A DNA stretch of 64,000 bases from Deltaproteobacteria bacterium (GCA_002709835.1 PAQX01000076.1:2985-66984); one strand, 5' to 3'. Shown: positions 1-55,993, counted from the stretch's first letter. The notes: generated by a model not told the origin, from the sequence alone. Translations and numbers: made by a program.

Positions 1-1187
1 CCGATTCGGAGCGAATCGAAGTCGAAGCGATCCGTCCGGTTCCAGAGATGCTTGTCGATGAACGCTTCCTGGAGCGTGAAGTGGTAGTCGAGGCGGTCGT
101 CGCCGGCCTTCGGGTCGAGCTTGACGGCGCCCAGCTGCTGGACCCAGACCTTGTTGACGTTGAGCGCCGGCGTGACCCGGATCTCCCAGTCCGGCGGCCG
201 GAAGGTCGTGTCGCCCTGGATCAGCGCGACGGACGTGAGCAGCGTCGTCTGGCTCTCCCAGGCGACGCCGTCGCCGAAGAGGTCGACCTCCTGATCGTTG
301 TCCCCCACCGCGCCCGTCGGGATCGGGATCCGCCGCGGCTCGAAGAGCTGATCCGCGACGACGCTCACGTTCACAAACCAGTCCTTGGTCCCCGGGATCG
401 GACGATCCGCCTTGAGCGTGTTCTGGTTGTACGGGTCGTACCACTTCTCGTTGACGCCGAGGTTCTCGACGATCCGCCAGCGGTCGGGCAGCGCGACGAA
501 CTCGTAGTCCGGAAGCTCGTTCTCGTAGGTCGGGGCGTTCCGGCGGCTCGGCCGCTTGCCGTCGCTCCGACGCGGCGGAGGCTCACCGGGCACCCACTCG
601 GAGCGCGGGATCGAACGCGGCTCGGGCTCGGCCCCGGGCGTCGAGCCCGAGTCCTGATCCGACTCCGCCCCCGGCCGCACGGGCGCGGGCCGGCGCGGCG
701 GAGGCGGCGGTTGCTGCTGGCGCGGCGCCGGCGTCCAGGAACCCTCGTCGAGGGGCGGCTCGGGCGCCGGCTGGACCGGCGCCGGAGGCGGCGCAACGGG
801 CGCGGGCTCGACCGGCGTCGGAACGCCGCCGGAGGACGTGTCGGGCTCCAGCGGTGCGACGGGCTGCTGGGTCGGCGCCGGCGGCGGTGCGGGCGGTCGC
901 TCCTGCCCGGCATCCCCCTGGCGACTCCCGCCGGGTCGCCGGCCGCGCGGCCGCCGTCGTCGGCGCGCCCGGGCGCCGTCGTCTTCGACGTCGGCCTGGG
1001 CCAGGAGCAGCTCGAAGACGGTCGGGGGCCTGAGCGTCTCTTCGACCGCCGCGACGTCGAGTCCGGGATCGGTCTCGGGATCGTCCGCGGGGCGCGAAGC
1101 GAAGCCCGCGTCCGCGCCGAGCATGGCGAGGGCGGTGACGCCAACGAAGAGGGAGCGGGAAAGTCCGGGTACGCGCTTCGCCCTCAT
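1..1187 (-). CDS. Secreted proline-rich protein (possible outer-membrane protein); 3' end lies beyond the window edge
   Basis: The ATG at 1187 overlaps the TGA of the upstream gene (ATGA). This minus frame is open down to position 1. It is codon-aligned with the spurious + ORF 48..1388, which contains no TTA, CTA or TCA codons. It is missing from the ORF track only because it has no stop in the window. The N-terminus MRAKRVPGLSRSLFVGVTALAMLGADAGFA looks like a signal peptide. About 130 aa of P/A/R-rich low complexity follow, then ordinary sequence (..WYDPYNQNTLKADRPIPGTKDWFVNVSVVADQLFEPRR..). No family recognised. Confidence 0.55.
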   Translation of the reverse strand, partial: MRAKRVPGLSRSLFVGVTALAMLGADAGFASRPADDPETDPGLDVAAVEETLRPPTVFELLLAQADVEDDGARARRRRRPRGRRPGGSRQGDAGQERPPAPPPAPTQQPVAPLEPDTSSGGVPTPVEPAPVAPPPAPVQPAPEPPLDEGSWTPAPRQQQPPPPPRRPAPVRPGAESDQDSGSTPGAEPEPRSIPRSEWVPGEPPPRRSDGKRPSRRNAPTYENELPDYEFVALPDRWRIVENLGVNEKWYDPYNQNTLKADRPIPGTKDWFVNVSVVADQLFEPRRIPIPTGAVGDNDQEVDLFGDGVAWESQTTLLTSVALIQGDTTFRPPDWEIRVTPALNVNKVWVQQLGAVKLDPKAGDDRLDYHFTLQEAFIDKHLWNRTDRFDFDSLRI

Positions 1188-3745
1188 CATCGTCCCTCGC
1201 ATCCGTTCTGCTCGTTGCTGCTCAGGAAGGGAGCGACCGGGCAGACCACGTATCGCAGGAACACGTTCTGGACGGAGATGTTGTCCGCGCGTTGGACGTC
1301 TGGGCGGCCATCGACGGGGGTCGTATCGACGCCGATCCGCGGCGAGTTCCCGATCGGGTTCGCGATGCTCCGCGGCGCGCGGGCCTGATCCCGGCCGACT
1401 TCGTCGAGCGCCACGAAGGGGACGAAGTCGTCCTGCTCGGCGCCATCGCCCGACACGCCGTAGGCCCCGACCAGGACCGCATCGCCCGTCGTGGAGTCGG
1501 TGCGGTAGATCGGAACCGCGCCCTGAAAGATGTGGAAGCCGTTCTGGAGGCCGGTGATGTTGCCCGAGCCAGCGGGGAAGTCCTGGGCCCCCTGGATGCA
1601 GTCGAGCTGGGCGCCCGCATCCGCCGAGCCGATCAGAAGGGTCCGGACGCCGTCGCAGAACGTGTCGCGCTGACCCACGTCGGTGAAGAGCGCGGCGCGA
1701 CCCCCGGGCGGCGGCGCGACGCCGAGGCCCGCGGCCGCGTTCAGGTCGAAGAGCACCCCCGCGAGATCCGGCACCTCTTCGCAGAGGCCGACGGCGATCC
1801 CGGGCAGCACGGTCTCGGTCTGGATCCCCGTCGAGAAAATGCTCCACTCGTCGACGTCGGGATTGCGGCTGAGGGGCCCGTTCTGGCCGGAGGCGACGCC
1901 GGGCGGGAAGTCAGGATTCGCGATCCCGCCTAGGGCGATCGAGGACCAGGCGAACTCCCCTTCGAAGAGCGGATCGGCGAGATCGAGTCCGAGGAAGGCT
2001 CGCGTATCGGCGAGGTACTGGTCGAAGGAGCGCGTGTTGAGCAGGTTGCCGTTGTTGCCGAGGGGATCGAACGCATCCTCGAGCTGGGTACGCGTGTCGT
2101 CCTTCGACCAGAACGCCGCCTGCCTCGTTTTCGCGATCGTGACGTCGACGCCGTCGAGGAGCGCGTCCTGGGAGCGCGCGAAACCGAGGACGTTGCCGTC
2201 GAGGTCGACGACCGCGACGTCGATCCGGGCCTGCCCGCCAAGCGGGCGGCGGGTCTGGGCGCGCGTGTTCTCCGCGAGCAGCAGCGCCTCGATCAGCAGC
2301 TCCTGCACGTCGGCGGCGGAGAGCCCGTCCGCCGGCGCCGGGTTCGCGGGATCCGCGGGCGGCGGGGGATTCATGCTGTCGATCGCGGGATACCGATCGG
2401 CTCCAACGGCATCGACGAGCTTCTCGCCGTTCGCCGTGCCGACGTAGCCGTTGCCAACGGCGACGTCGGTGTCGGCGAAGGTGTTGCCGACGACGCCCGA
2501 GGTCGGGTCGAGGAAGAAGACACCGGCGCGCGGTTCGGTGAAGGGGAAGAAGAACTGGTCGGAGACGAACTGGCCGGACCCCGAGCCGAGGGTGATCAGG
2601 CCGTTCAGGCGCGCGTTGATGGCGCCGATGTTGGCGACGTCCGCCGGGCTGATGACCGGCGCGGTCGCGCGCGAGGCCCGCCGCCCGGTGTCGTCGACCC
2701 AGCGAAGGGCGCGACCGGCGACGGTGATCCGGGAGGCCCGCCGCTCGGCGTCGGCATCGAAGCTCTCGGCGGCGGTCGCTCCGATCGTCGCGCCGTAGGC
2801 GATCCGCTCCTCGAGGTTGCGGTCGCGATCCGTGCCGTCGTTGTCGAGCCCGTAGATGCCGTTGAACTCGATGCCGACGGCGCCGACGACGACCTTGCCG
2901 ACGCGCCCGGTCGGCGTCCCACCAAGGAAGACCGGTGCGTCGAGCTCGGCGATGTTGTCCTTGTAAAGGGAGATCCCGCCCGGGTCCGCGGCGAAGCCGA
3001 CGGGCAGCCGGCGCGGGCCGATCAGATCGTTCGGGTCGTCCGCGACCGTCTCGTCGGCGATCTGGTTGACGCTCTGGCGCGTGTTGATGTCGCTGCAGAC
3101 GAGCTGGGCGATCTGGACCGCGAAGAGCGGGCCGCCCGGTCGATCGGTCTCGCCCGGGAAGAAGTTCTGCTGGATCAGCGTGCTCGCGGTCCGCGAGGTG
3201 AATGCGTTGCCCTGTGTGGAGAAGTAGTTGGAGGTCCCCGCCTTGCTGATCGCGGCATAGCCCGCCGGAATGAAGATCCCGTCGAGGGCCGTCTGGAGGG
3301 AGGTCAGGCCCGCGGTCGTCGCGACGGCCGCGAAGTCCGCGGAGCCCCCGTTGCTCTCGACGATGAAGGGCGTGTTCGCCGTGCGGTCCGGCGACTCGAC
3401 GGAGGTGATGAGGGAGTAGTTGGTCGTCGCCGCGTCGGTGTCGTAGACCGCGAGCACGTTCGAGAGGTGATCGAGGACGACGACCGTGATGTCCGGGATG
3501 CCGTTCGCTTCGGCTTCGTGGATCGCGTTCGCGATCACCTGCACGACGTCCTGGACGGTCAGCCGCGCTTCGACCCCGGCCGCTTCCGCCGGATACCCCA
3601 GCTCGGTCCCGTCCTGCGTGTAGTTGCATTGGAACTGGCAGACCTGGTTGTTCGACACGTTGCCGTCGGGGCAGCCGAGCAAGAGGCCCGTACCGAGGAG
3701 CGACGCGACGAGGGCGAGCGCGCCACGCGGGGAACGGGGGGTCAT
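1187..3745 (-). CDS. Lipoprotein with two GlcG/HbpS-like (DUF336, haem-binding family) modules
   Basis: Track ORF is 1187..3991. The internal ATG at 3745 gives MTPRSPRGALALVASLLGTGLLLGC, a signal peptide plus lipobox-like LLGC. DUF336-like strings occur twice. First copy: ITVVVLDHLSNVLAVYDTD ... PGGISLY ... VGAVGIE. Second copy: RIDVAVVDLDGNVLGFARSQDALLDGVDVTIAKTRQAAFWS ... GAVPIY ... LVGAYGVSGDGAEQDD. No CxxCH motif is present. Confidence 0.6.
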   Translation of the reverse strand: MTPRSPRGALALVASLLGTGLLLGCPDGNVSNNQVCQFQCNYTQDGTELGYPAEAAGVEARLTVQDVVQVIANAIHEAEANGIPDITVVVLDHLSNVLAVYDTDAATTNYSLITSVESPDRTANTPFIVESNGGSADFAAVATTAGLTSLQTALDGIFIPAGYAAISKAGTSNYFSTQGNAFTSRTASTLIQQNFFPGETDRPGGPLFAVQIAQLVCSDINTRQSVNQIADETVADDPNDLIGPRRLPVGFAADPGGISLYKDNIAELDAPVFLGGTPTGRVGKVVVGAVGIEFNGIYGLDNDGTDRDRNLEERIAYGATIGATAAESFDADAERRASRITVAGRALRWVDDTGRRASRATAPVISPADVANIGAINARLNGLITLGSGSGQFVSDQFFFPFTEPRAGVFFLDPTSGVVGNTFADTDVAVGNGYVGTANGEKLVDAVGADRYPAIDSMNPPPPADPANPAPADGLSAADVQELLIEALLLAENTRAQTRRPLGGQARIDVAVVDLDGNVLGFARSQDALLDGVDVTIAKTRQAAFWSKDDTRTQLEDAFDPLGNNGNLLNTRSFDQYLADTRAFLGLDLADPLFEGEFAWSSIALGGIANPDFPPGVASGQNGPLSRNPDVDEWSIFSTGIQTETVLPGIAVGLCEEVPDLAGVLFDLNAAAGLGVAPPPGGRAALFTDVGQRDTFCDGVRTLLIGSADAGAQLDCIQGAQDFPAGSGNITGLQNGFHIFQGAVPIYRTDSTTGDAVLVGAYGVSGDGAEQDDFVPFVALDEVGRDQARAPRSIANPIGNSPRIGVDTTPVDGRPDVQRADNISVQNVFLRYVVCPVAPFLSSNEQNGCEGR

Positions 3746-3921
3746 CGGGCGCCTCCAACCGGAACCCACCGGACCGGAACACGCCGCGCGTTCGATCGGC
3801 TCGCACGACGGGGCACCGGCGGTTCCAACATCCACTCGAGAACGCGCGGCCTGGGGGCGCGCACGACTCGCTGCTTCGTTCGTCGACGGGTTCGAAGCGC
3901 GCGCGTCGTTTCTCGGCTTTT

Positions 3922-3955
3922 CTTGACGCGAACGACGAACATCGTCCGCGTCAAG
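3922..3955 (-). terminator. Strong intergenic stem-loop (CTTGACGCG...CGCGTCAAG) about 80 nt downstream of the cytochrome gene; possible intrinsic terminator or operator
   Basis: A perfect 9-bp inverted repeat lies at 3922-3930 and 3947-3955. An inner GACGA/TCGTC pairing extends the stem. There is no U-tract after the stem on the minus-strand transcript, so the terminator function is uncertain. Confidence 0.3.
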
Positions 3956-4034
3956 AGAAAAGGCAGGAGAACGATCTGGCACGTCCCTCACGCGTCCCGA
4001 TCGATTCTACATGTCCTGAACGAAATTGCCGGGC

Positions 4035-5951
4035 CTAATTCAGGCGGTCGAAAGGCGGATGGCGGACGTCACGCCAGCGGGATCCGGCCGAGTCCCGGTG
4101 CGCGCCGAAGCCGTTTCGGAAGAGCGCACGATGGATCGCCGCGCTGTCTCCGGACTCGATCTCCCCGGCGCCTTCCGCGGCGTCGGCGTCGGGCGTCGGC
4201 GGGACGAATGCGGGCTCGGCGTCGGCGATCGTGCCCATCGGTCCATTCGCCCGCACGTGAAAGGGATGACACATCGAGCACGGGCTCGGGACCTTCTCGC
4301 CCCCGCTCGCCGTCGCGCCCGCGTGACAATCCCGGCAGACCGCCACATCGGGAATCAGGATGTCCCCCGAGACCGTACTCACCCCGGTCGTCGGCTCGCG
4401 CGGGATCAGCTCGTACGGAATCGCGCCCTCGAGCGACCAGGACGGCCGAGCGAGGGAGGTGTCTTCCTCCGGATCGAAGACCCCGGCCGCCGGGTGGCAT
4501 TTCACGCACGCGAAGGGCGCATGGGAGCCGTGGCTGAAGATCGAGCCGGGGACCCAGACTTCCTGGACCTGGACCGGCGCAATCCCAATGCCCCCGTCGC
4601 TCGCCGCGCCCGGCGCGAGCGTATGACAGAGATCGCACGTACCCGGTCGCTCGTAGAAGCGCCGCTCCGCCGCGGCGACCTTGCCGTCGACCCATTTCCG
4701 GGAGAGCTCCGCCTCGTCGGCGGTCAGCCGCTTGCCCGGGCGCCGCAGACGCAGGCGGCGCGGGGCCGCGGGATCCTTCACATCGCCGTCGAGGACGCGA
4801 TTCGCGTAGAACCCGCGGATCCGATCCCGGATGACCGCGGGATCGCCATGGGGCACCGCGTTCTTCGGCGCGGTCGCGTCGAAGTCGAGCTGATGGCAGT
4901 CCTCGCAGTGATCCTCGAAGACGACGGGCTTCATATAGAGCCCCCCGGCATCGGGCTGATGACAGGCGCCGCACTGGAGGTATTGCTTCTCGTCGCCGCG
5001 CCCGCTGACCGCCTTGCCTACGTGTCGCAGGTGGCTGAACTCGAGACCCGAGACCTCGACGAGGTCCGGCGTGACGTCGACCGAGACGGCCTCCTCGGCG
5101 GGGTCCGTCACGAGGGCCAGCTGGAAGGGCGGATGGTCATCGCCAAAGTCGCTCGCGTTGCGGAGCGCCGTCGCGGGCAGCGTCGACGCGAGGTCGGAGT
5201 GGCAGTCGGCGCAGAATCCGGCCCCGAGGTCGGCGAGGTCAACCTGACGACCGCGATGCTCGAGATGGCAGGTCGCGCAGGACGCGTCGTCGAGCGCTTC
5301 CATGCTCATCGTCTGGGGAGCGTGCCGACCGATGTCGTGGTGGCAGGTCATGCAGTCCTGGTTCTGGACCGGGCGGAAGAGACCGGAGTGGCAGCTCTGA
5401 CAGTCGTTCTCGATGTAGGCGTGGCCGCGGCTCACGTCACCGGTGTTCCAGGGCGACTGCGCGCCCTCCCACGCGAGGGGGAGAAGAAGGAAGAGGGACA
5501 GAACCAGGACGATCCCCGCCCAGGCGAGCGGCCGCATCGCGAAGGCCCCGGACTCGAGACCGAGTCGCACCCGCGCGTCGAGGGCTGCACGTTCGTCTTC
5601 ACCGCGGTCGGTCTCTTCGTACTCGAGCGCGACGTCGAACTCACCGACGGACGTCGGCTCGATCACCCGCAGCTCCCACGAGCCGATCTTGAGGACGTCG
5701 CCGATCGCGAGGCGCTCGCCCTGACTCACGAGGCCGTTGCAGTTCACCTCCTGGCCCGGTGCCGCCTCGGCGTAGAGCCTTCCGTCCGCCATGCGAAGGG
5801 TCGCCTGGTGGAGGGAGATCGTGAGGCCCTTGAGGGAGAGGTCGTTGTCGGGACCTCGGCCGATGAAGAGCGATTCGACGTCGAGATCGCGATCGAGCCG
5901 GACCTTCTTTCCCGTCGGGCGCAGGCGGATCTCTGTCAGGCGTACGCGCAT
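4035..5951 (-). CDS. FHA domain - single TM - decahaem c-type cytochrome
   Basis: The N-terminal FHA signature is FIGRGPDNDLSLKGLTISLHQATL (G-R...S-x-x-H). A hydrophobic span follows at aa 139-161 (PLAWAGIVLVLSLFLLLPLAW). Ten CxxCH motifs then occur at aa 184, 200, 225, 247, 327, 349, 439, 482, 539 and 558: CQSCH, CMTCH, CATCH, CADCH, CGACH, CEDCH, CDLCH, CVKCH, CRDCH, CSMCH. The start ATG at 5951 overlaps the upstream stop (ATGA). Confidence 0.85.
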   Translation of the reverse strand: MRVRLTEIRLRPTGKKVRLDRDLDVESLFIGRGPDNDLSLKGLTISLHQATLRMADGRLYAEAAPGQEVNCNGLVSQGERLAIGDVLKIGSWELRVIEPTSVGEFDVALEYEETDRGEDERAALDARVRLGLESGAFAMRPLAWAGIVLVLSLFLLLPLAWEGAQSPWNTGDVSRGHAYIENDCQSCHSGLFRPVQNQDCMTCHHDIGRHAPQTMSMEALDDASCATCHLEHRGRQVDLADLGAGFCADCHSDLASTLPATALRNASDFGDDHPPFQLALVTDPAEEAVSVDVTPDLVEVSGLEFSHLRHVGKAVSGRGDEKQYLQCGACHQPDAGGLYMKPVVFEDHCEDCHQLDFDATAPKNAVPHGDPAVIRDRIRGFYANRVLDGDVKDPAAPRRLRLRRPGKRLTADEAELSRKWVDGKVAAAERRFYERPGTCDLCHTLAPGAASDGGIGIAPVQVQEVWVPGSIFSHGSHAPFACVKCHPAAGVFDPEEDTSLARPSWSLEGAIPYELIPREPTTGVSTVSGDILIPDVAVCRDCHAGATASGGEKVPSPCSMCHPFHVRANGPMGTIADAEPAFVPPTPDADAAEGAGEIESGDSAAIHRALFRNGFGAHRDSAGSRWRDVRHPPFDRLN

Positions 5952-6787
5952 CAGTGGTACCAGAAGACGACGAAGATGTGGACGAGGAGCGCTGCGCAGG
6001 TCGCGAACGCGAAGGGCACGTGGACGATCAGCCAGAGGTCGAGCAGGCTCTTGAAGCGGACGTCACGCCGGATCTGCTTGAGGAGCAGCTCCTTGCGCGC
6101 GATCAGCTCCACGAGCTTCCGCTCCTGCTCCTTCGCGTCGCCCGCGAGATCGATCTTGGACATCCGCAGACTCTTGAGCGCCAGGCTCGTTCCGCAGTCG
6201 GGATCGTGCCCCGAGAGCTGCGCGCGGACGGAGCCGCCGATCCGGGTCTCGTCGATCGAGGTCACGACCGCCTGGGCGTAGTAGTCGGGCAGTCCGTCCG
6301 CCGCCATCCGACACTCCGCGTCGATCTCCGCGATCCGCTCGAGCATCGCGTCGAGGGTGATGTTGTTCCGGTTGCGCGTTATCGAGGTCGGGACGAGGGC
6401 ATAGAACGCGACGCCCAGGATTCCGCTGAAGCAGACGACGAGCATGAGCACGTAGGCCAGCGTGTGGACGTTCCAGCCGAACTCGAAGGCCGAATGGAGC
6501 GGCACGAGGAAGATCAGCATCGTCCCGAGATAGACGTGCGCCGAGGTCCAGCCCTTGAGCGGCGCTCCCGCCGACGCGTAGTCGCGCTTCCTCACGCCGA
6601 GCCACATCAGCCAGAAGATGATCGCCGCGGCGATCGTCCCCAGGCCGTAGCCGGTCCAGGAGGAGCCGCTCCGGCCACCCGGCGGATCGTCGAAGACATA
6701 GGCCGCGAGCGAGAGGAAGAAGATCGCGAGGGCGACCTTCAGGTAGCGGTAGTTCTGGTATTCGAGGAAGGTGCGCGGCCCGATCAC
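5951..6787 (-). CDS. Integral membrane protein (5 predicted TM) with two H-x13-H helices; putative di-haem b-type electron-transfer subunit
   Basis: Track ORF is 5951..6853. A GTG at 6787 lies 4 nt after the TAG of the upstream gene (6792-6794). Hydrophobic spans are LKVALAIFFLSLAAYVF, GTIAAAIIFWLMWLGV, HVYLGTMLIFLVPLH, TLAYVLMLVVCFSGILGVAFYALV and WLIVHVPFAFATCAALLVHIFVVFW. His106/His120 and His278/His292 (ORF-track numbering) are each 14 residues apart. A hydrophilic, partly coiled loop of about 110 aa sits between TM4 and TM5. Confidence 0.7.
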   Translation of the reverse strand: MIGPRTFLEYQNYRYLKVALAIFFLSLAAYVFDDPPGGRSGSSWTGYGLGTIAAAIIFWLMWLGVRKRDYASAGAPLKGWTSAHVYLGTMLIFLVPLHSAFEFGWNVHTLAYVLMLVVCFSGILGVAFYALVPTSITRNRNNITLDAMLERIAEIDAECRMAADGLPDYYAQAVVTSIDETRIGGSVRAQLSGHDPDCGTSLALKSLRMSKIDLAGDAKEQERKLVELIARKELLLKQIRRDVRFKSLLDLWLIVHVPFAFATCAALLVHIFVVFWYH

Positions 6788-6791
6788 GCGA

Positions 6792-9700
6792 CTAGCCCTG
6801 TCTTTCGTAGATCTCGTCGACGTACTCGCCGGGATCGATGCGGACGATGGCACCAGTCGGGCAGGATGCGACGCAGGCGGCCCGCGCCGCGCCGCTCTTC
6901 TTGGCCGGGAGCTCCCGGCAGAGGTCGCACTTCACGGCCTTCTTGATCGCCGCCGCACCGCCCTCTTCCGGCTTCGGCGCATCGGCCTTCTTCGTCGCGC
7001 GACGCGGGAAGAGCAGACGCATCAGGAGACCCGGTCCCGGATCGTCGTCCACCTTCGCCATCTTGATCACGTCGTAGGGGCAGTAGGCCTCGCAGTTGCC
7101 GCAGCCGATGCAGGTCTCGTCGTTGATCCAGACCTCGCCGTTCGGATCGCGGTTGAGCGCGTCCGGCGGACAGTCGGTCATGCACTTCGGGTTCTCGCAG
7201 TGCTGACACGCGGTCGGCAGATGGAGCGCGCTGCCCGCGCTCGTCATGTAGGTCGCGCCCGCTTCGCGGTTCAGTCGCGATACGCCGCCGTGGGTCTCGG
7301 CGCAGGCCTTCTCGCAGTTGTCGCACCGGACGCAGAGCGTCTCGTCGATAATCAGGAGGTCGGTCGCTTCTTTCCCGCCCGCCTTCTGCAGCCACATCAT
7401 CGTCCCGCGCCCGTGCTGACGACGCGCATCCGCGATGATGAACTCCTGCTCCTTGAGTTCGAGGAACTCGCGCAGCTCGCGATGCTGCTCGACGAGCTGG
7501 ATCATCACGTCCTTCGGGAAGAGGACGGTCTCGCAGTCCACGCCGGCCCGCGCCGTCGCCGAGCGCGCCTGATCCGGATGGAGCACGGCCATCTCGCCGA
7601 GGGTCGAGCCCGCTCGAAGGGAGTCGATCTGCTCCTCGACGCCCTCGTGCTTCTTGTAGACCTCGGCCGTGCCGCGGCGGATGAGATGGAGCCCGTCCGG
7701 ATCGTCCCCCTCGGAGAAGATCGTCTCTCCGGCGCGGTGAAGGATCGTCTCGGATCGGCTCGCGAGGAGCTTGCGTGCGCTGGCGTCGAGACTCGGGAAG
7801 AGCGTGGCGAGGGCGGTGTTCACGTAGGCCGCATCGATCACCCGCTTCACGTCCTCGACGGACCGGATGAGCTTCGCCATCGAGCTGCGCGGCGTCTCGA
7901 TCAGGATGCAGGGCGAGGTCGTCGTCACGGTCTCGCCCCGACGTCGCCCCGAGATCAGGCCGTCTTCGCCGAAGAACTGCCCCGTGCCCCGGGTCGCCTT
8001 GCGCTCCGCCCGAAGCTCCTCGGGAATCGTCGGGTCGGAGTTGTCGACCCAGGCGAGCTCGACGTCGCCCTCGATGATCGAGAAGAAGGTGTTGTCGAAG
8101 TCGGCGCGCTGGTAGACGACGGTGCCGGGCGGGACGATCCGGATCTTCGACTCGAAGATCAACTGACGGAGCTGGACCGACGTGAGGGGCGCGAGAGTCG
8201 GGATCGTGTTCTGGATCCGGTCGAGGTTCTCGCTGACGCTGCCTCCGACCTCACGGAACTTCTGGGCCAGGACCGGCTCGTCGGCGGGCTTCACGTCGGC
8301 GCCGAGGATGTGCTCGACGACCTCGAATCCCTGGTTCATGCAGTTCTTGATCAGCGGATAACCGACCAGGGCACCGACCATGTAGATGCCCGGGATGTTC
8401 GACTCGTACTTGTCCGAGACGTCCGGGATGGCCTCCTTGTCGTTGCTCGGGAACGAGATGCCCGTCGTCTCGAGGAAGGCCCGCGGCGGCGTCGCGCCGA
8501 GACGACCGATCACGAGGTCGCAGGGAACCGTGACCTCTTCGCCGTCCTTCGTCTTGAAGACCGCCGTGTCGCTCTCGAACCGGTCCGCGCTCGCGTTCGT
8601 GAGATAGGCGATCTCCCCCGACTTGATCTTCGCTTCGATCGCGGCCTTGTTCATCGGCTTCGCGCGGTCGAACTCGTCGCGGCGGTTCACGATCGTGACT
8701 TCGTTGCCGTTCTCCGCGAGGGCGATCGCGTTCTCGATCCCCGCGTCGCCGACGCCGACGACGATCACGCGCTTGTCTTCGTATGCCTTGGGATCGTCGA
8801 GCTGATAGGTCACCCAGGGCTGATCGTCGCCTGGTACCCCGAACTTCCGCAGGTCGCCCTGGACGCCGATCGAGAGGACGATGTGGGTCGCCTCGACGGT
8901 CTCGGCGCCGTTCGGGCCCCGCACCGAAATCCGGAACGCGCCCTTCTCGCCTTCGATCGCGAGGATCTCGGTCGCTTCGACGAGGTTCGTCCCGGCGTCG
9001 CGAACGGCCGTCTCCCACCACTTGAGCACCTGTTCGCGGACGGCCTCCTCGAAGATCATCTTGAGGTCCGACTGCAGCGGCAGCTGCGGCGGCTCGGCCA
9101 TCACGAACTTGCCCTTCTGGTACTTCACGATCGTGTCCGCGAGGACCGACCGCTCGTAGAGGGCATGGTTCACCCCGCGCTCCGCCGCGCGGACCCCGGC
9201 GGCGATGCCGGCGGGACCGGCGCCGATGATCGCGAGCGAAACGCTCGACGGATCCGGCGGTGGCTCGTCGACCGAGACCGGGCGCATGATGAAAGCGCTC
9301 GTGACTTCGGGCCCTTCGGCCGCTTCGATCGTCGCCATCGGCGCCGGCGCCGCGCGCACGGGCGCGACCGTCTCGGGCTCGGGCGAGGGCGAGGGCGAGG
9401 GCGAGGGCGGGACCGGTTCCGGCGGCGCTTCGACGGGCTCGGCCGCCGCGGCGACCGGCTCCGGCGGATCGTCGACCCGACCGACCCGGGTCTCGTCCAC
9501 GCTCGCCGGGGTGGCGTCCCCAGTCTCCGAAGGCGCGTCCTCCGCCGCCTCGATGCGCAGTCGCAGGACGACGCGGTCCGCGAGTTGGATCTCTTCGCCG
9601 CCCGCGAGCTCGAGGCGGTCGGTGATCTGCACGCCGTTCACCAGGGTGCGGTTCACCTGGCTCTTGTGGACGAGAACGAGGGTCTCGCCCTCCCAGACGA

Positions 9701-9848
9701 GCTCGGCGTGGAGGCGCGAGATGCTCTGGTCCGCGAGCTGGATGTCGCAGGCGAGTCCGCGACCGAGGGTGGTCGTCTCCGGACCGACGTCGAACGACTG
9801 TCCCGCCTGGTCCGGCAGACCACCCATGATGGTCAACGTGGCGCGCAT
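6792..9848 (-). CDS. Multidomain redox sensor protein: FHA, P/A/E-rich linker, TrxR-like FAD/NAD(P)H oxidoreductase (no CxxC), 2x cyclic-nucleotide-binding-like domains, 4x[4Fe-4S] ferredoxin domain
   Basis: Track ORF is 6792..9854 (TTG start). The ATG at 9848 gives MRATLTIMGG.
- FHA: LGRGLACDIQLADQSISRLHAELV (about nt 9854-9555).
- Rossmann 1: IIGAGPAGIAAG (about nt 9224).
- Rossmann 2: VIVVGVGDAGIENAIALAENGNEVTIVNRR.
- cNMP-like segments: ..FFGEDGLISGRRRGETVTT.. and ..LGEMAVLHPDQARSATARA.. (about nt 8192-7455).
- Cys clusters (about nt 7343-6840): CVRCDNCEKAC, CQHCENPKCMTDCP, CIGCGNCEAYCP, CDLC..CVASCP. Confidence 0.85.
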   Translation of the reverse strand: MRATLTIMGGLPDQAGQSFDVGPETTTLGRGLACDIQLADQSISRLHAELVWEGETLVLVHKSQVNRTLVNGVQITDRLELAGGEEIQLADRVVLRLRIEAAEDAPSETGDATPASVDETRVGRVDDPPEPVAAAAEPVEAPPEPVPPSPSPSPSPEPETVAPVRAAPAPMATIEAAEGPEVTSAFIMRPVSVDEPPPDPSSVSLAIIGAGPAGIAAGVRAAERGVNHALYERSVLADTIVKYQKGKFVMAEPPQLPLQSDLKMIFEEAVREQVLKWWETAVRDAGTNLVEATEILAIEGEKGAFRISVRGPNGAETVEATHIVLSIGVQGDLRKFGVPGDDQPWVTYQLDDPKAYEDKRVIVVGVGDAGIENAIALAENGNEVTIVNRRDEFDRAKPMNKAAIEAKIKSGEIAYLTNASADRFESDTAVFKTKDGEEVTVPCDLVIGRLGATPPRAFLETTGISFPSNDKEAIPDVSDKYESNIPGIYMVGALVGYPLIKNCMNQGFEVVEHILGADVKPADEPVLAQKFREVGGSVSENLDRIQNTIPTLAPLTSVQLRQLIFESKIRIVPPGTVVYQRADFDNTFFSIIEGDVELAWVDNSDPTIPEELRAERKATRGTGQFFGEDGLISGRRRGETVTTTSPCILIETPRSSMAKLIRSVEDVKRVIDAAYVNTALATLFPSLDASARKLLASRSETILHRAGETIFSEGDDPDGLHLIRRGTAEVYKKHEGVEEQIDSLRAGSTLGEMAVLHPDQARSATARAGVDCETVLFPKDVMIQLVEQHRELREFLELKEQEFIIADARRQHGRGTMMWLQKAGGKEATDLLIIDETLCVRCDNCEKACAETHGGVSRLNREAGATYMTSAGSALHLPTACQHCENPKCMTDCPPDALNRDPNGEVWINDETCIGCGNCEAYCPYDVIKMAKVDDDPGPGLLMRLLFPRRATKKADAPKPEEGGAAAIKKAVKCDLCRELPAKKSGAARAACVASCPTGAIVRIDPGEYVDEIYERQG
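9375..9410. repeat. In-frame hexanucleotide tandem repeat (GGGCGA x4 with imperfect flanking copies) encoding PSPSPSPSPEPE in the linker of the FHA-flavoprotein
   Basis: The direct read is gggctc gggcga gggcga gggcga gggcga gggcgg at 9375-9410. Confidence 0.8.
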
Positions 9849-10358
9849 GGACAAGCTGACTCACCCCTCTAGCCGCGCGATTCCGAAACAGGAAGGGCGG
9901 CCCCCGAACGATTCTATGCCACGTGGACCGAGGAAATCACCTGCGCGTGGAGCGCACGGGACCCTCGGAGCACACCCGCACGGCGCGCACGAATCGAGTC
10001 GGTACCCGCGACGCGCCGGAGGGAGTCCATGGGACCGCACCCGGCGCGGGAGCACATGAAGGGAAGGCGGTCTAGGCCGACCCGCCGTCCACGGGGAGTG
10101 CCGGAGCGGTCCCGCCCGTTCCGCCCCCGCCGCTCGGCTCGGATCCCGCCCCGTCGCCTCCGCTCGCGCTCCCGGCCCACCCCTCGACCCTTATGAGAAT
10201 CTTTCAGCCTCCTCGGCGCCCGCTCCGGCCAAGCAAGTCCGCTCCTCGGAATAATTGTGGCAAAAAGCCTCCTGCCAATCCTCAAGGGAGCCCCTCGGCC
10301 GGTCGATTTCTCGTGCGAATCCGACAGTTTGGCCCTGGCCCGCGAGTCGGGAGGAAAC

Positions 10359-11474
10359 GTGTCCGCCCACCTGAAGTTCTTCGAGCTCGAGCAGTCCCCC
10401 TTCGAAGGGAAGGCCCAGAGCAAGGTCGTCCTCGGGACGCGCGCCCTGCGTGAAGCGTTCGGCACGATTCGAAGCGGCATCGACGAGGGGGCCTCGCGCC
10501 TCTGTGTGAGCGGCAACGCCGGCCTCGGCAAGACCAGCCTCGCCCGGGCGCTCCCCAAGCTCCTCGGTGACGCGGCTCGCGTGGCGAACGTCCTCGATGC
10601 CAGGGTCGAATGGCCCGCCTGCCGCGAACTCATCGCGCGCCAGTGGGACCTCGACGCGGGTCGCCTCTCGCGCGCCGCGCTCATCGAGGCCCGTACGGAC
10701 CGCCGCCTGGTGCTCGTGATCGACCAGGCCGAGCGGGCCAGCGAAGACTTCCTCGACCATCTCGACGTCCTGCTCAGCTACCGCACCGAGACCGACACGC
10801 CCGTCGTCCAGAGCGTGCTGCTCGCGAACCTCGAGACCCGCGAAGGCGGCACGCCCGTCCCGCTCCTCTGCTGGCTCGATCGGACCCAGACGCTTCAACT
10901 CGAATTCGCGCCGCTCCCCCGCGACGGCGTCGCGTCCTACATCGCCAAACATCTCCGGCGCGCCGGCTGGCGCGGCGAAGCCCTGTTCAGCGAGGACGCG
11001 GGCTTCGCGATCCACGACTACGCGGGCGGCGTACCCGGCGAGATCTCCGCGCTCTGCGAACGACTGCTCGTTGAGGCGGCCTCGGTCGAGCCCGCGGTGC
11101 CGCTCGCCTCCCCGGAGAAGGGCTTCGTCGATGCCGACGCGCTCGCGCAGCTTCCGCCGGAGGTGCTCGCCAACGCGATCGCCGCGGCCGAGGCCCTCGC
11201 GCCGATCGTCGAGAGCGAGCCCGAATCCGCACGCCTCGCGCGAGTTGAACCGCCGGTCACGCAAGCGACGCCCGAAAAGAACGAACCGGCGGTCAGGGTC
11301 GTAGCGAGCGAGGCGAGCGACCCGGACGCCGGAAACGGGGAATCTCCCCTCGGCGGAGCGAACGAGACCGCCGCGCCGGCGGAAGCCCAGACGAGTAACC
11401 CCGAGAGGTCGGATTCGATTCCGGCCTCGCCAGAGCCTCTCCCTGCCGTTCCGGACGAGGAGCGTTTCTGGTAG
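10359..11474 (+). CDS. ExeA/GspA-like AAA ATPase with acidic P/A/E-rich C-terminal tail
   Basis: Track ORF is 10257..11474. A GTG at 10359 is preceded by GGAGGAAAC. The N-terminus ..HLKFFELEQSPFEGKAQSKVVLGTRALREAFGTIRSGIDEGASRLCVSGNAGLGKTSLARAL matches the ExeA pattern (FGL.e.PF ... then Walker A GxxGxGKT). The last roughly 110 aa are low complexity. Confidence 0.65.
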   Translation: MSAHLKFFELEQSPFEGKAQSKVVLGTRALREAFGTIRSGIDEGASRLCVSGNAGLGKTSLARALPKLLGDAARVANVLDARVEWPACRELIARQWDLDAGRLSRAALIEARTDRRLVLVIDQAERASEDFLDHLDVLLSYRTETDTPVVQSVLLANLETREGGTPVPLLCWLDRTQTLQLEFAPLPRDGVASYIAKHLRRAGWRGEALFSEDAGFAIHDYAGGVPGEISALCERLLVEAASVEPAVPLASPEKGFVDADALAQLPPEVLANAIAAAEALAPIVESEPESARLARVEPPVTQATPEKNEPAVRVVASEASDPDAGNGESPLGGANETAAPAEAQTSNPERSDSIPASPEPLPAVPDEERFW

Positions 11475-18920: not shown

Positions 18921-20606
18921 CTATCCCCGGCGTTCGACGAGCGCGTCCCGAATGTCCCGCTTCAGGATCTTGCCCGAGGCGTTCCGCGGGAGCGGCTCTT
19001 CGTAGACCTCGACGATCGTGGGCACCTTGAACTTCGCGACCTTCGACGCGACGAAATCGGTCAACGCGTCGACGTCGATCGACTGGCCCTTCTTGGGCAT
19101 GACCGCGACCGCAACCTCCTCGCCGAGTCGGTCGTGCGGCATTCCGAAGACCGCCGCCTCGTGGACCGCTTCGAACTCGTAGATGACCGCTTCCACCTCG
19201 GCGCAGTAGATGTTTTCGCCGCCGCGCAAGACCATGTCCTTCGCGCGATCCTCGACGAAGACGAAACCTTCTTCATCGATTCGCCCGAGGTCCCCGCTCT
19301 TGAGCCAACCGTCGACGATCGTCTCGGCCGTCGCCTCCGGCTTGTTCCAGTAGCCACGAATCAGGTTGGGGCCGCGGAAGCAGATCTCGCCGACCTCGCC
19401 TCGCGGAACCGGGTTCATGTTCTCGTCGAAGCACTCGACCTGCAGGACCGGCACGGCGCGGCCCGAGCTGCGCGGCTTACGGAGGTAGTCGGCCCCGGCG
19501 TTCTGAGGACCGTAGGCATTCGTCTCGGTCATCCCGTAGCCGAGGCCCGGGCGCGCGTTCTTGAAGCTCTTGTCGACGCGGCCGACCATCTCGGGCGGAG
19601 CCGGCGCACCGCCGCCACCGACCGACGCGAGGCTGGAGGTGTCCCGGTTCGGGAAGTCGGGGCATTCGAGCAGGTCGATCGTCATCGTCGGCACACCGAC
19701 GAACTGGGTCACCCGCTCGCGCTCGACGAGCTCCAGGGCCCTCTCCGGCGTCCACTTGTACATGATCACGAGCTTGAACCCGTTGCTGAAGCACGAGAGC
19801 ATGACCGGCACGAGTCCGGTCACGTGGAAGAGCGGCACGGCCAGGATGAAACAGGTGTCGAAGGGGCTCGGCTCCTTCGGCGGCTGGATCATCGCGCCGA
19901 CGAGCGCACGGCAAGCGAAGGCCCTCAGGCCCGATAGCACCGCCCGATGAGCCGAAACGGCGCCCTTAGGGAACCCGGTCGTCCCCGACGTGTAGAGGAT
20001 CGTCGCATCGTCCTCGGGACCGACCTCGACCTGGGGCATCGTCGCGCCCGCGGTCAGCACTTCGTCGAGTCGATCCACGCCCTCAGGCAGACTGCCGTCG
20101 TGGCGAACGCAGACGGCCTGCATGCCGAAGCGCGCGAGGTTCGGCGCTGCGGTCGTGATTCGCTCGATGTCGGCCATGAGCACCTTGCAGCCGGAATCCT
20201 CGAGGCCGTAGGCCATCTCGTCTTCCTTCCACCAGGCATTCATGCAGACGGCGATCGCACCGACGCTCGTGATCGCGGCGAAGGAGAAGATCCACTCGGG
20301 GTAGTTGCGCATCGCGATGGCGACGCGGTCGCCCTTCTCGACGCCGTACCGGTTGACGAGCAGATCCGCGATCTCGTCGACCCGGTTCATCGTCTCGGCG
20401 AACGTCCACGTCTCGTCTTCGTAGACGAGGAAGGTCTTGTCGCCGTTCAGCCGCGCCGCCGCGAAGACTTCGCGAAGGGAGGAAGGCAGATTCTTCCAGA
20501 CCTTCATGGCCTGCCCGTCCACTTCCGCTTCGGCAATCTCGAAGGGCGAGCCCTCTGCGCTGGTCAGAGCGGCGAGTGCCTGTTCGAAGTTCGGTTGATC
20601 GGCCAT
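18921..20606 (-). CDS. AMP-dependent acyl-CoA synthetase/ligase
   Basis: The internal ATG at 20606 gives MADQPNFEQ... AMP-binding motif: ILYTSGTTGFPKGAV. Also present: GYGMTET, GDLGRIDEEGFVFVEDRAKD and LPRNASGKILKR. Confidence 0.9.
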   Translation of the reverse strand: MADQPNFEQALAALTSAEGSPFEIAEAEVDGQAMKVWKNLPSSLREVFAAARLNGDKTFLVYEDETWTFAETMNRVDEIADLLVNRYGVEKGDRVAIAMRNYPEWIFSFAAITSVGAIAVCMNAWWKEDEMAYGLEDSGCKVLMADIERITTAAPNLARFGMQAVCVRHDGSLPEGVDRLDEVLTAGATMPQVEVGPEDDATILYTSGTTGFPKGAVSAHRAVLSGLRAFACRALVGAMIQPPKEPSPFDTCFILAVPLFHVTGLVPVMLSCFSNGFKLVIMYKWTPERALELVERERVTQFVGVPTMTIDLLECPDFPNRDTSSLASVGGGGAPAPPEMVGRVDKSFKNARPGLGYGMTETNAYGPQNAGADYLRKPRSSGRAVPVLQVECFDENMNPVPRGEVGEICFRGPNLIRGYWNKPEATAETIVDGWLKSGDLGRIDEEGFVFVEDRAKDMVLRGGENIYCAEVEAVIYEFEAVHEAAVFGMPHDRLGEEVAVAVMPKKGQSIDVDALTDFVASKVAKFKVPTIVEVYEEPLPRNASGKILKRDIRDALVERRG

Positions 20607-20878
20607 GGCGACGGGTCCTCGGGTGCACATGTTCGGGCGCGCAGATCCCCTCCCGTGGGGGCGCGCGGCGGCGGAGGGTACCCGAACCACGGCGGCCGGA
20701 TCACTCACCGGACGGCACGCCGGGTCACGACCCGAGCGCGTTTCGGCGCTCGGCCGGCTCCGAGCGGCCTCGAAAACGTCGATTGACGGCGGCCCGGGAT
20801 CTTTCCATGATTACGGCCGAACCTGTTTTTCCGCGCCGACCCCACAGGCGCCGCAGACCCACGAATGGAGGCCGACCC

Positions 20879-22663: not shown

Positions 22664-23968
22664 TTGTCATCGGGCCCCGCGCCCCAGAGAGAAGCAACCT
22701 TGCCCGAAACCCTCCGGATCACCGACCTCGCCGACCCCGAATACACCGACGCCGCGAAGGCCGGCTTCCAGATGATCGAGCAGATCCCCTTCGACCTCTC
22801 CGTCGACGGCGTGATCGCGGCGGCGCGCGATCAACTCGATCAGGAAGGTGGATCCCCCCTCTTCGAGGACGAGGCCTGGAATGAACGGCTGCGCTTCTAC
22901 ATCGAGTGCGTCGGCGAGGACGCCCACTACACGACGATGGGGCGCTTCAACACGTACAACTCCCTCGTTCGCTATCTCGTCCAGCGCAGCCGCCTCGAAG
23001 CGCTCTACGCGGCGCACCCCGAGATCGACGATCTCGAGATCGAGCGTCCGCTGATCATCGCGGGTCTCCCGCGCTCTGGGACGACCCATCTCCTCAATCT
23101 GATCGGCGCCGACCCCCGTCTGCGCGCCCTGCGACGCTGGGAGTCCCAGGAGCCGATCCCCTCGGCCGCTGCACGAGCGGGAACCGTCGCGGACGATCGG
23201 ATCGCCAACGGTCAGACCGGCCTCGACCAGATCGACCTCGTCATGCCGCTCATGACGAACATGTACGACGTGCCCAATGACGGGATCCACGAAGAGGTGG
23301 ATCTCCAGCACATGTGCCTGTCGTCCCTGCTGATGGCGGCCGGCCAGCCGGTCACGCGCTGGATGGACGCCTACTTCGAAGAGGATCAGCGTCCCCATTA
23401 CGCGTTCCTGAAACGCGCGCTCAAGGCCCTGCAGTTCCTCGAATCGAAGGAGCGCTGGGTCCTGAAGAGTCCGCAGCACCTGGGCTGGCTCCCGGCCCTC
23501 GTCGAGACCTTCCCGGACGCGACCTTCGTCTGCACCCACCGCGACCCCGTCTCGGTCTTCACCTCCTGGATCACGATGACCGTCTACGCAGCGCGCATGT
23601 CCCGCCAGCCGATCGTGTTCGACGAGATCATCCCCCACGCCGAGAAGCTCCAGAAGTACCTGCTCGACGGCGTCGTCCGCGATCGTTCGGTCCTTCCCGA
23701 GGCGCAGACCGAGCACGTCTACTTCCACGAGTTCATGGCGGACGACATGGGGACCCTCGAGCGGATCTACGACCGCGCCGGGCTCGGCATGAGCGACGCC
23801 GCCCGCGCCGAGATCGACCACTACATCGAGACCCATCCGCGAGGCCGCCACGGCAAGGTCGTCTACGATCTGGAGGGCGACTTCGGGATCACCCGCGATG
23901 CCATGTACGAAGTCTTCGAGAACTACATGGACGCGTTCCCGGTCCAGCGCGAGACGCCCAACGCGTGA
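22664..23968 (+). CDS. Sulfotransferase-family protein (paralogue 1 of 3)
   Basis: The PAPS 5'-phosphosulfate-binding-like loop is LIIAGLPRSGTTHLLNLI. RWVLKSPQHL and THRDPV are also present. The C-terminal region is alignable with those of 44909..46108 and 63765..64000. The exact start is uncertain. Confidence 0.8.
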   Translation: MSSGPAPQREATLPETLRITDLADPEYTDAAKAGFQMIEQIPFDLSVDGVIAAARDQLDQEGGSPLFEDEAWNERLRFYIECVGEDAHYTTMGRFNTYNSLVRYLVQRSRLEALYAAHPEIDDLEIERPLIIAGLPRSGTTHLLNLIGADPRLRALRRWESQEPIPSAAARAGTVADDRIANGQTGLDQIDLVMPLMTNMYDVPNDGIHEEVDLQHMCLSSLLMAAGQPVTRWMDAYFEEDQRPHYAFLKRALKALQFLESKERWVLKSPQHLGWLPALVETFPDATFVCTHRDPVSVFTSWITMTVYAARMSRQPIVFDEIIPHAEKLQKYLLDGVVRDRSVLPEAQTEHVYFHEFMADDMGTLERIYDRAGLGMSDAARAEIDHYIETHPRGRHGKVVYDLEGDFGITRDAMYEVFENYMDAFPVQRETPNA

Positions 23969-28351: not shown

Positions 28352-28380
28352 GAGACCCTCCGGAGGAGAACGAATGGAGA

Positions 28381-55897: not shown

Positions 55898-55993
55898 GGC
55901 GCGTTCACTCCGGGCTGGGCGGTTGGCTTCGGCTCTACGATATCGTCTCCGCCGACGGCTTCGAGGCCATTCCGGCCGAGCGGAGAACCCGAA

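Follow-up and report, generated by a model that had tools for sequence, protein, structure and literature searches.

Three adjacent genes were analysed on the minus strand of a 64,000-nucleotide (nt) stretch of DNA from a Deltaproteobacteria bacterium (PAQX01000076.1:2985-66984; about 67% G+C; this whole stretch is hereafter referred to as the window). The genes, which we call G1, G2 and G3, encode a flavoprotein with cyclic-nucleotide (cNMP)-binding and iron-sulfur (Fe-S) domains, a protein with five transmembrane (TM) segments and a membrane-anchored decahaem cytochrome c, respectively. Judging from the sequences, we think it on balance likely that G1-G3 are the inner-membrane part through which electrons enter a conserved trans-envelope export system, which would be fed by NADPH and gated by cNMP. 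An earlier note on this DNA had proposed a transmembrane electron path with cNMP sensors on the input subunit, and this proposal passed all the sequence-based tests that the note had suggested. The note had regarded the three genes as the unit; they are in fact predicted to be the inner-membrane half of a conserved trans-envelope cluster of six to seven genes, of which G4 and G5 lie in the window and G6 past its edge. The results described below, taken together, reveal a system that is real, strongly conserved and uncharacterised, and whose input and regulation module is without precedent.

G1, G2 and G3 were recovered as three minus-strand open reading frames (ORFs) within positions 4035-9854, with the boundaries and the 4-nt G1-G2 gap that the earlier note had given (Table 1). 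Their third-position G+C content (GC3) is 0.86-0.91, a strong bias typical of real genes in this genome. The TAG of G1 (6792-6794) is separated by 4 nt from the GTG start of G2 at 6787, which yields a protein of the length found in most of the 120 homologues among the matches listed. The G2 stop and the G3 start share the sequence TGATG, with a 1-nt overlap at position 5951, rather than the ATGA overlap reported before; an ATGA overlap (1187-1190) does occur between the start of G5 (ATG, 1190) and the stop of G4. The start of G1 is ambiguous: TTG 9854 lies 9 nt past a Shine-Dalgarno-like site (GAGGGG) and is better spaced to it, whereas ATG 9848 lies 15 nt past this site and is the start used in a database protein (P0001, 1018 residues). 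Since the next gene upstream (10257-11474, plus strand), an AAA ATPase by Pfam that is not related to the cluster, diverges from it, G1 is the first gene of the unit. One weak sigma-70-like match was found upstream of G1 on the minus strand (10278-10251); the promoter, terminator and Rfam scans otherwise gave nothing meaningful.

Table 1. Coordinates of the cluster genes, their domains and the upstream intergenic region in the window (aa, amino acids)
Feature	Position	Strand	Description
G1	6792..9848	-	1018 aa from ATG 9848 to TAG 6792; predicted cytoplasmic input subunit
G1 FHA domain	9582..9773	-	PF00498; GR ... SRLHA ... NG; followed by a Pro/Ser/Ala/Glu-rich linker
G1 two-Rossmann flavoprotein module	8328..9239	-	YpdA/Bdr- and TrxR-like, no redox-active CxxC
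G1 tandem cyclic-nucleotide-binding (CNB) domains	7482..8186	-	CNB-1 ~7860-8186, CNB-2 7482-7736; PF00027
G1 C-terminal four-cluster ferredoxin domain	6834..7358	-	NrfC/DmsB/HycB type; 16 Cys in four motifs
G2	5951..6787	-	GTG start; 278 aa; 5-TM putative dihaem cytochrome b
G3	4035..5951	-	638 aa; FHA fold, one TM segment, decahaem c domain
G3 FHA-fold domain, cytoplasmic	aa 1-113, nt 5613-5951	-	Pfam, AlphaFold2, Foldseek
G3 TM segment	aa ~141-160, nt 5472-5531	-	single hydrophobic segment, aa 135-165
G3 periplasmic decahaem c domain	aa 184-562, nt 4266-5402	-	ten CxxCH
G4	1187..3748	-	853-aa putative lipoprotein with HbpS/GlcG-like domains
G5	1..1190	-	N-terminal 396 aa, clipped by the window edge; barrel-like
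Intergenic region upstream of G1	9855..10256	.	divergent; gene calls by GC3; presumed operon promoter

G1 had been described as an FHA domain followed by a thioredoxin reductase (TrxR)-like flavoprotein without CxxC, two cNMP-binding domains and four Fe-S clusters, and the corresponding Pfam domains were all recovered. The flavin module matched Pyr_redox_3 (115.6 bits) and Pyr_redox_2 (105.6 bits), and both of its Rossmann GxGxxG motifs (GAGPAG at residue 209 and GVGDAG at residue 365) are conserved. It scored below the equivalog cutoff of the YpdA model TIGR04018 (153 against 339.9 bits) and below that of the thioredoxin reductase model TIGR01292 (76 against 343 bits); G1 is thus not a member of the latter family, of which it also lacks the CxxC, the four CxxC motifs of G1 all being in the Fe-S domain. 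The best PDB sequence matches of the module were the Bdr/YpdA structures 7a76 (E 1.9e-23) and 7a7b (E 5.4e-21), and the TrxR-type ferredoxin:NADP+ reductases 5ygq, 8c16 and 6gas were also among the matches. An NRRDEF motif resembles what we take to be the NADPH motif of TrxR, HRRD, and it is on this assumption that the cofactor is read as NADPH.

That the best matches of the flavin module are bacillithiol-disulfide reductases of the YpdA/Bdr type would suit an alternative in which there is no single conduit. G1 would then be an independent, cNMP-regulated cytoplasmic oxidoreductase, such as a YpdA-type reductase of disulfides or small molecules, that is merely co-transcribed with its neighbours, and G2 would be a haem-free scaffold. 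The flavin module, however, has no conserved redox Cys (C443 is found in 45/58 sequences and C503 in 20/58). We consider this alternative very unlikely, also in view of the G2 histidines and the gene order described below.

The cNMP-binding family PF00027 matched G1 with 99.6 bits (cutoff 27.5) over two stretches, and PDB matches to the regulatory subunits of PKA and PKG cover both CNB domains. Among 58 sequences the phosphate-binding cassettes are conserved as F-G-E...G-R-R-R..T in CNB-1 and as G-E-M-A...R-S-A-T in CNB-2; CNB-1 of the window has RRGET where the relatives have RRSAT. In the Fe-S domain, which matched Fer4_11 (PF13247; 42.7 bits, cutoff 26.2) as well as Fer4_9 and Fer4_7, all 16 Cys (839/842/845/849, 881/884/889/893, 913/916/919/923 and 974/977/992/996) are invariant in 58/58 sequences. 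The NCBIfam models NrfC, DsrO and DmsB matched this domain under their cutoffs (NrfC, 64.5 against 377.6), without pointing to a specific equivalog, and HycB and PsrB-type ferredoxins were among the PDB sequence matches. No hydrophobic or TM segment and no signal peptide was found in the G1 sequence. The homologues of G1 number 1210, the near ones being annotated as 'NAD(P)-binding domain-containing protein' in metagenome-assembled genomes (MAGs) of Myxococcota. In one 1110-residue protein (P0380; MEO5345780.1, from a Magnetococcus sp. YQC-9 MAG), a G1 consisting of flavoprotein, two CNB and Fe-S parts is fused to G2, the C-terminus of the Fe-S domain being joined to the cytoplasmic N-terminus of G2. 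An apparent G2-G3 fusion (P0400) was discarded as a frameshift artefact, the sequence between its two parts being garbled.

G2 had been described as a 5-TM protein with H-x13-H on two helices. Five helices of membrane-spanning length are present in the AlphaFold2 model (mean pLDDT 80.9), along with a helical insert on the cytoplasmic side (residues 137-245), and the two His pairs are H84-x13-H98 on TM3 and H256-x13-H270 on TM5. These four His, one pair per helix, are the putative ligands of two b haems. All of them are retained in 82/82 sequences, together with H108 and the exact x13 spacing. With the topology assigned from the G2 loop charges and the helix boundaries of the model, both H-x13-H helices run in the same direction. 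H-x13-H pairs ligate two haems in cytochrome b and in NADPH oxidase/ferric reductase domain (NOX/FRD) proteins, and by analogy the i/i+14 spacing would bring both ligands to the same helix face, with about 21 Å between them. The fifth invariant His, H108 (6463-6465), is part of a WNVHT motif at the periplasmic start of TM4 and is superfluous to two bis-His haems; it could be a ligand or dock for the first c-haem region of G3, or for a third cofactor.

The family assignment of G2 is a weak one. It matched PF01292 (prokaryotic cytochrome b561/Ni_hydr_CYTB) with 30.7-30.9 bits against a cutoff of 30.1, over TM1-TM4 only, and all 28 members tested matched this family weakly (best E 5.7e-8); Ferric_reduct (PF01794) weakly matched 11/28 (best E 0.005). 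A Foldseek search of the PDB with the G2 model gave nothing significant (best E 0.31; NarI at rank 14, E 1.2), and the G2 profile gave only chance matches to PDB sequences. The lack of a significant PDB relative favours the haem-free scaffold mentioned above, as does a 2026 bioRxiv preprint on Ferrigenium straubiae (10.64898/2026.01.22.701106), in which InterPro reportedly found no motif in the 5-TM protein of a similar gene set and a scaffold was suggested. The five invariant His with their exact spacing in 82/82 sequences, the match of 28/28 members to a cytochrome b family and a gene order kept over several phyla all stand against it. The invariant His pattern argues that the 5-TM protein would be the missing redox link, contrary to the view taken in the preprint.

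For G3, the earlier description as an FHA domain, one TM segment and ten CxxCH motifs was confirmed by the motif count, by Pfam and by the FHA fold of the model. The protein has exactly ten CxxCH, which use 20 of its 21 Cys, while shuffled sequences of the same composition had a mean of 0.025 and a maximum of 1. Eight of the motifs are conserved in all 72 aligned sequences and the two others each deviate in one sequence; ten CxxCH were counted in 74/79 complete homologues. The haem part of the model is of low confidence, and Foldseek gave FHA matches only; a PDB sequence search with G3 returned nothing significant. Against the MtrA/DmsE decahaem model TIGR03508, G3 scored 22.9 bits (cutoff 192.2), the count of ten CxxCH alone being shared. 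The NapC/NirT family was absent from the Pfam and NCBIfam matches of G3 at E <= 0.01; the N-terminus is an FHA domain and the haems are ten.

The two FHA domains differ in how well they fit the role of phosphothreonine (pThr) readers that the earlier note had assigned to both ends of the path. That of G1 (47.6 bits to PF00498, cutoff 20.7) is canonical: G29, R30, S44, H47 and G72 are invariant in 19/19 FHA-bearing homologues down to 46% identity, making it a plausible pThr reader. It is clade-specific, occurring in Myxococcota-type G1 and a few other clades; at most loci the tblastn matches to G1 start near residue 205. Myxococcota are rich in kinases, which fits a pThr-reading FHA domain in G1. 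The FHA domain of G3 (22.2 bits, cutoff 20.7), on the other hand, is present in all members. Its model (residues 1-113, pLDDT about 90) retrieved the FHA domains of GarA, OdhI and Ki67 with Foldseek (E 2e-5, TM-score 0.72-0.76), and G31-R32 is invariant in 72/72. At the position of the canonical phosphate-contacting Ser of S-x-x-H, 40/72 sequences have Ala and only 7/72 have Ser; the His of the window protein is shifted by one residue (TISLHQA), and of the N-G motif the N is found in 41/72 and the G in 63/72. Reading of pThr by this domain seems doubtful. GarA and OdhI bind metabolic enzymes directly, and by analogy the G3 FHA domain more likely docks or regulates a cytoplasmic partner.

To assess conservation, a pattern scan derived from the G2 alignment was run over one genome per species, which gave at least 588 confirmed relatives; a profile search of 1.84 billion representative proteins gave 294 clusters at E <= 1e-30. 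For synteny, the best 80 loci and four other loci (84 in all; individual loci are referred to by L numbers) were compared by tblastn, with G1 scored over loci having at least 3 kb upstream (n=75) and G3-G6 over loci having at least 9.5 kb downstream (n=50). The trio recurs, as the earlier note had expected: G1 lies directly upstream of G2 in 59/75 loci, and G2 and G3 are adjacent in 82/84, the sequences of the remaining two (L030 and L053) ending within about 0.6 kb of G2. The G3 start lies a median of about 11 nt past the G2 stop across loci. G3, G4, G5 and G6 were found in 50/50, 44/50, 45/50 and 45/50 loci, respectively. These neighbours are conserved over Alpha-, Beta- and Gammaproteobacteria, Myxococcota, Binatia and Vicinamibacteria, with carriers including Myxococcota-like MAGs, SAR116, Rhodospirillales, Sphingomonadales (Novosphingobium album), Oceanibacterium hippocampi, Burkholderiales, Usitatibacter, Lysobacterales (Tahibacter soli, Dokdonella) and Glaciecola. 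All-against-all clustering of the flanking ORFs revealed no further universally conserved partner and no conserved kinase, phosphatase or regulator. The closest relatives of the window are MAGs labelled Myxococcota. The closest loci (L005 and L007; 83-93% G2 identity) were deposited as 'Spirochaetaceae bacterium', while one isolate name contains 'MYXO' and the near proteins are labelled Myxococcota; the Spirochaetaceae label is probably a taxonomic mislabel of MAGs.

The NAD(P)H input had been taken as part of the unit, which holds for the 59 loci where G1 adjoins G2; in the other 16/75, most of them from Burkholderiales and Usitatibacter, others from Lysobacter-like MAGs and one from Vicinamibacteria, G2-G6 stand without an adjacent G1, so that this input is not obligatory in cis. 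Because of these loci, the membrane module may also, or instead, use the quinone pool. This leads to a second alternative, in which G2-G3, like CymA, CbcL, ImcH and NapC, would oxidise quinol or reduce quinone and so link the quinone pool with the cytochromes of periplasm and outer membrane, while G1 would be an accessory, regulatory or redox-balancing protein rather than the main electron donor. Besides the 16 loci, it draws on the match of G2 to PF01292, which includes the quinone-reactive FdnI and HyaC, and on the quinone link that the Ferrigenium preprint (10.64898/2026.01.22.701106) proposes for a related FHA-nonahaem protein. The genomes lacking an adjacent G1 may, however, encode it elsewhere. 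Where G1 does occur, it and G2 are closely coupled, once even fused, and the four-cluster Fe-S wire at the end of G1 would most obviously serve to pass electrons on to a partner. The two H-x13-H helices of G2 also depart from the 1+1+2 layout of the haem ligands in FdnI and HyaC, and no quinone-site motif was identified. We regard a quinone-linked role as rather unlikely, though the most credible of the alternatives weighed here.

The genes downstream of G3 look like an outer-membrane counterpart. G4 starts with the Met before a signal peptide and an LLLGC lipobox, a longer ORF (1187-3991) over-extending its 5' end. It matched PF03928 (HbpS/GlcG-like) with 44.7 bits in two stretches, and a lipobox-like motif is present in 38/60 homologues; a PDB sequence search gave nothing significant (best EfgA/GlcG, E 0.028). 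G5, which matches L003 17049-18851, begins with a signal peptide and could be assigned to no Pfam family. Tyr or Phe is the last residue of 48/49 homologues, as is usual for outer-membrane barrels, and G5 looks like an outer-membrane beta-barrel. G6 (for example, L071 16888-20622) is a secreted protein of 1240-1310 residues with ten CxxCH and, at its C-terminus, an LVIVD beta-propeller. Conservation within the cluster is highest for G6 (52-63% identity across classes), and a PDB sequence search with it gave nothing significant. No solved or characterised relative was found for any of G2-G6.

Other genes recur around this module. A c554-like multihaem cytochrome of about 440 residues with five CxxCH-like motifs is the seventh recurrent gene, found in at least 22 loci (for example, L085 17990-19309, L014 4946-6037 and L020 from 20262); it lies directly 3' of G6, mostly in betaproteobacterial loci without G1, and a few kb upstream in SAR116/Rhodospirillaceae. 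An ORF of about 150 residues with a signal peptide lies between G3 and G4 in 14 loci, mostly labelled Alphaproteobacteria (for example, L008 12610-13062), and is missing from the window. Genes for cytochrome c maturation are found nearby as well: ccmA, ccmB and ccmI stand directly upstream of G2 in L020 (6968-9677), in divergent orientation, and ten other loci have a CcmF-like gene on the upstream side, most of these loci being betaproteobacterial and lacking an adjacent G1. Within the operon of the window, only G3 and G4 are separated by a sizeable gap, which is 286 nt long. It contains an 18-nt inverted repeat (3918-3959; 89% complementary, 6-nt loop), which on the minus-strand RNA is followed by AAAA and is thus not a classical terminator; the hairpin may be a processing or stability element that separates the expression of the inner- and outer-membrane modules.

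In the electron-export mechanism that we propose, cytoplasmic NADPH would reduce the FAD of the YpdA/TrxR-like module of G1, and the electrons would run through the four [4Fe-4S] clusters at its C-terminus. They would enter G2 at a haem near the cytoplasmic face (H84 and H256), cross to a haem near the periplasmic face (H98 and H270) and proceed to the ten c-haems of G3, which would project into the periplasm from its single anchoring helix. From G3 they would reach the outer-membrane module of the G4 lipoprotein, the barrel-like G5, the decahaem/LVIVD propeller protein G6 and, often, the c554-like cytochrome. The flavin and Fe-S parts are placed in the cytoplasm because G1 has neither signal peptide nor TM segment, and the c-haems in the periplasm because the haem domain of G3 follows its TM segment. 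The flow would be outward because NADPH is a low-potential donor and the membrane potential favours electron movement from the negative to the positive side. Because such a path conserves no energy, and would drain NADPH and depolarise the cell, an on-board switch would be needed. The tandem CNB domains between the flavin and Fe-S modules are the likely switch, in which cNMP binding would set the flavin-to-cluster geometry; in Myxococcota-type G1, the canonical FHA domain would add an input from Ser/Thr kinases. Candidates for the terminal acceptor are extracellular or periplasmic Fe(III) or Mn, O2 (which would yield superoxide) and a substrate bound by the G6 propeller.

Several lines of evidence speak for this mechanism. 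Every cofactor signature is present and invariant or near-invariant (the Rossmann motifs, 16 Cys, four His and ten CxxCH), and the genes are tightly coupled by the 4-nt gap between G1 and G2, the 1-nt overlap between G2 and G3 and the ATGA between G4 and G5. The synteny of G1-G6, the G1-G2 fusion, the conserved cNMP cassettes and the cyclase neighbours described below add to these, as do the ccm genes beside the L020 cluster and the CcmF-like gene upstream in ten loci. Other observations weigh against it. G2 is a borderline Pfam member (30.7 against 30.1 bits) without a significant PDB match by structure or sequence, and G2-G6 occur without an adjacent G1 at the 16 loci discussed above. The G1-G2 fusion, known from one contig only, could be an assembly or frameshift artefact. 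A cyclase adjoins the cluster in no more than 4 of some 86 loci, and one of these (L038) has no adjacent G1. Finally, the function of the G4-G6 module and the exit of electrons from the cell are pure inference.

With respect to signalling, the earlier note had stated that the window contains no Ser/Thr kinase, PP2C phosphatase or nucleotide cyclase, and indeed none was found by Pfam in 30 of the larger ORFs upstream of G1 and in G1-G4, nor did tblastn with a CHASE2 cyclase match the window. The further statement that the signalling inputs must be encoded elsewhere holds for the window; in four other, unrelated loci a CHASE2 class III cyclase lies beside the cluster (cyclase regions: L085 590-5759, L001 3332-8605, L038 ~1365-9727 and L072 ~2236-6488). 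The cyclase is accompanied by a FecR-domain protein in all four loci and by a TPR protein in three of them. In L085 it is co-directional with the cluster, and the TPR and FecR genes between the cyclase and G1 overlap their downstream neighbours by 4 nt.

The earlier note knew of no characterised system with this composition, and literature searches for the domain and organism combinations likewise found none; the only relevant items were the Ferrigenium preprint and an entry in a Gallionellaceae pangenome table. These features go unmentioned in a survey of outer-membrane multihaem cytochromes (PMC11475568). The 'NHC' cluster of Ferrigenium straubiae (10.64898/2026.01.22.701106, section 6.3.2), the function of which is stated there as unknown, likewise has adjacent genes for an Fe-S protein ([4Fe-4S], cytosolic), a protein with five TM segments and a multihaem cytochrome c with one TM segment and an FHA domain in the cytosol, and the authors say that FHA had not been reported with multihaem cytochromes before. 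It differs from the window in having nine haems, in that no flavoprotein or cNMP domain is mentioned for the Fe-S protein and in that no G4-G6 module is described; the 5-TM protein is taken as non-redox and the proposed role is inward, from Fe(II) to quinone. The Gallionellaceae entry (PMC9900912, Table 1) is cluster 403, 'Forkhead-associated protein, 10 haem motifs', which is left unexplained. The kinship of both to the window proteins is suggested by architecture only. The Tenderiales 'Uet' cluster, which also has an LVIVD protein, was considered and rejected as a different system.

These iron oxidisers bring up a third alternative, in which electrons taken up outside the cell or in the periplasm, for example from Fe(II), would flow inward through the cluster to G1, which would reduce NAD(P)+ or another cytoplasmic acceptor. 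The FHA-multihaem proteins with ten haem motifs form one MMseqs2 cluster found in 27/87 genomes of Gallionellaceae iron-oxidising bacteria, and conduits of the Mto/Mtr type are regarded as reversible (PMC9900912); the nonahaem version of Ferrigenium is expressed in all conditions tested (10.64898/2026.01.22.701106). Electrons would, however, have to climb twice, once in crossing to the negative side of the membrane and again in reaching NAD(P)+ (about -320 mV), and no coupling site for the proton-motive force is visible. Moreover, most carriers among the best 80 loci are labelled as taxa that we take to be aerobic heterotrophs (Sphingomonadales, Lysobacterales, SAR116, Glaciecola and Oceanibacterium) and not lithotrophs. 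Uptake in this direction therefore appears improbable to us.

Comparison with known systems suggests that the cluster is a hybrid of NOX/FRD (or MsrQ-Fre), Hmc/Tmc and Mtr/Pcc features; by the membership tests run on G1-G3 it belongs to none of these systems. With NOX/FRD proteins and MsrQ plus Fre it would share a path from NAD(P)H through a flavin and two bis-His b haems on two helices to a far-side acceptor. This path is electrogenic and conserves no energy, and MsrQ (in MsrPQ) takes its electrons from a separate cytoplasmic NAD(P)H flavin reductase. Unlike in those systems, the flavoprotein here has a TrxR/YpdA-type rather than a ferredoxin:NADP+ reductase-type fold, an Fe-S wire and two cNMP domains are interposed, and the acceptor is a decahaem cytochrome instead of O2, Fe(III) or MsrP. 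G2 itself is not a ferric reductase/NOX protein, having five TM segments instead of six and only the paired H-x13-H in common.

The combination of periplasmic multihaem cytochrome c, membrane cytochrome b and cytoplasmic Fe-S protein resembles Hmc, Tmc and DsrMKJOP, and the Fe-S domain of G1 matches the DsrO, HmcB and NrfC models, all far under their cutoffs. The cytoplasmic subunit here is a predicted NADPH flavoprotein with cNMP and FHA domains and not HdrD-like, and the carriers are mostly aerobes; through Hmc and Tmc, electrons are assumed to travel inward, from H2 in the periplasm to sulfate reduction in the cytoplasm. An inner-membrane b/multihaem c entry followed by periplasmic and outer-membrane cytochromes and a barrel is the layout of CbcL/ImcH/CymA with MtrCAB/Pcc/Ext. 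G3 and G6 match the DmsE decahaem, MtrC domain and ExtM models weakly and far under cutoffs (for ExtM, 70 against 800). The input, in contrast, is apparently NADPH and not quinol, G6 is no lipoprotein and has an LVIVD propeller, the HbpS-like G4 has no counterpart and G5 could not be matched to a known family of porins. YpdA/Bdr and the TrxR-like ferredoxin:NADP+ reductases share with G1 the two-Rossmann FAD/NADPH fold without CxxC, whereas G1 falls under the YpdA equivalog cutoff, lacks a conserved active-site Cys and is fused to two CNB domains and a polyferredoxin.

To our knowledge, the known bacterial routes of electron export (Mtr, Pcc and Cbc/Imc) start at the quinone pool and have been studied in anaerobic metal reducers. 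The cluster would differ from them in starting at NADPH, in carrying its own second-messenger sensor, in some clades also a phospho-Thr sensor, on the input subunit, in having membrane, lipoprotein, barrel and propeller-cytochrome parts without characterised relatives, and in occurring mainly in aerobic Alpha-, Beta- and Gammaproteobacteria and in Myxococcota. We tentatively put forward, as a possibility rather than an expectation, that this is a widespread export machine (at least 588 species-level hits) driven by NADPH and not by quinones, switched by cNMP at its input subunit and analogous to a multi-subunit NADPH oxidase/ferric reductase, which would make it a candidate source of NAD(P)H-dependent extracellular reducing power (Fe/Mn, superoxide) in aerobic heterotrophs such as Sphingomonadales, Lysobacterales and SAR116. 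If so, it would offer a testable molecular candidate for extracellular Fe/Mn reduction and for the production of reactive oxygen by ordinary aerobic heterotrophs, and would be a first case of an electron-transfer chain controlled directly by cNMP. The cluster also gives a setting in which to place the FHA-multihaem cytochromes of iron oxidisers that have recently been noted as unexplained.

Elsewhere in the window, several protein families occur twice. There are two DUF3604 paralogues on the minus strand (26441-28906 and 57043-58965; 526 and 778 bits), and duplicated luciferase-like monooxygenases (29416-30282 and 60283-61323), Sulfotransfer_3 proteins (22664-23968 and 44909-46774) and Amidohydro_3 proteins (51432-53156 and 54155-57223). 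A tungsten-type aldehyde:ferredoxin oxidoreductase (AFOR_N, AFOR_C; 20576-22606, plus strand) is encoded near MsrA, a TetR regulator and an acyl-CoA dehydrogenase in what is apparently a Myxococcota genome.

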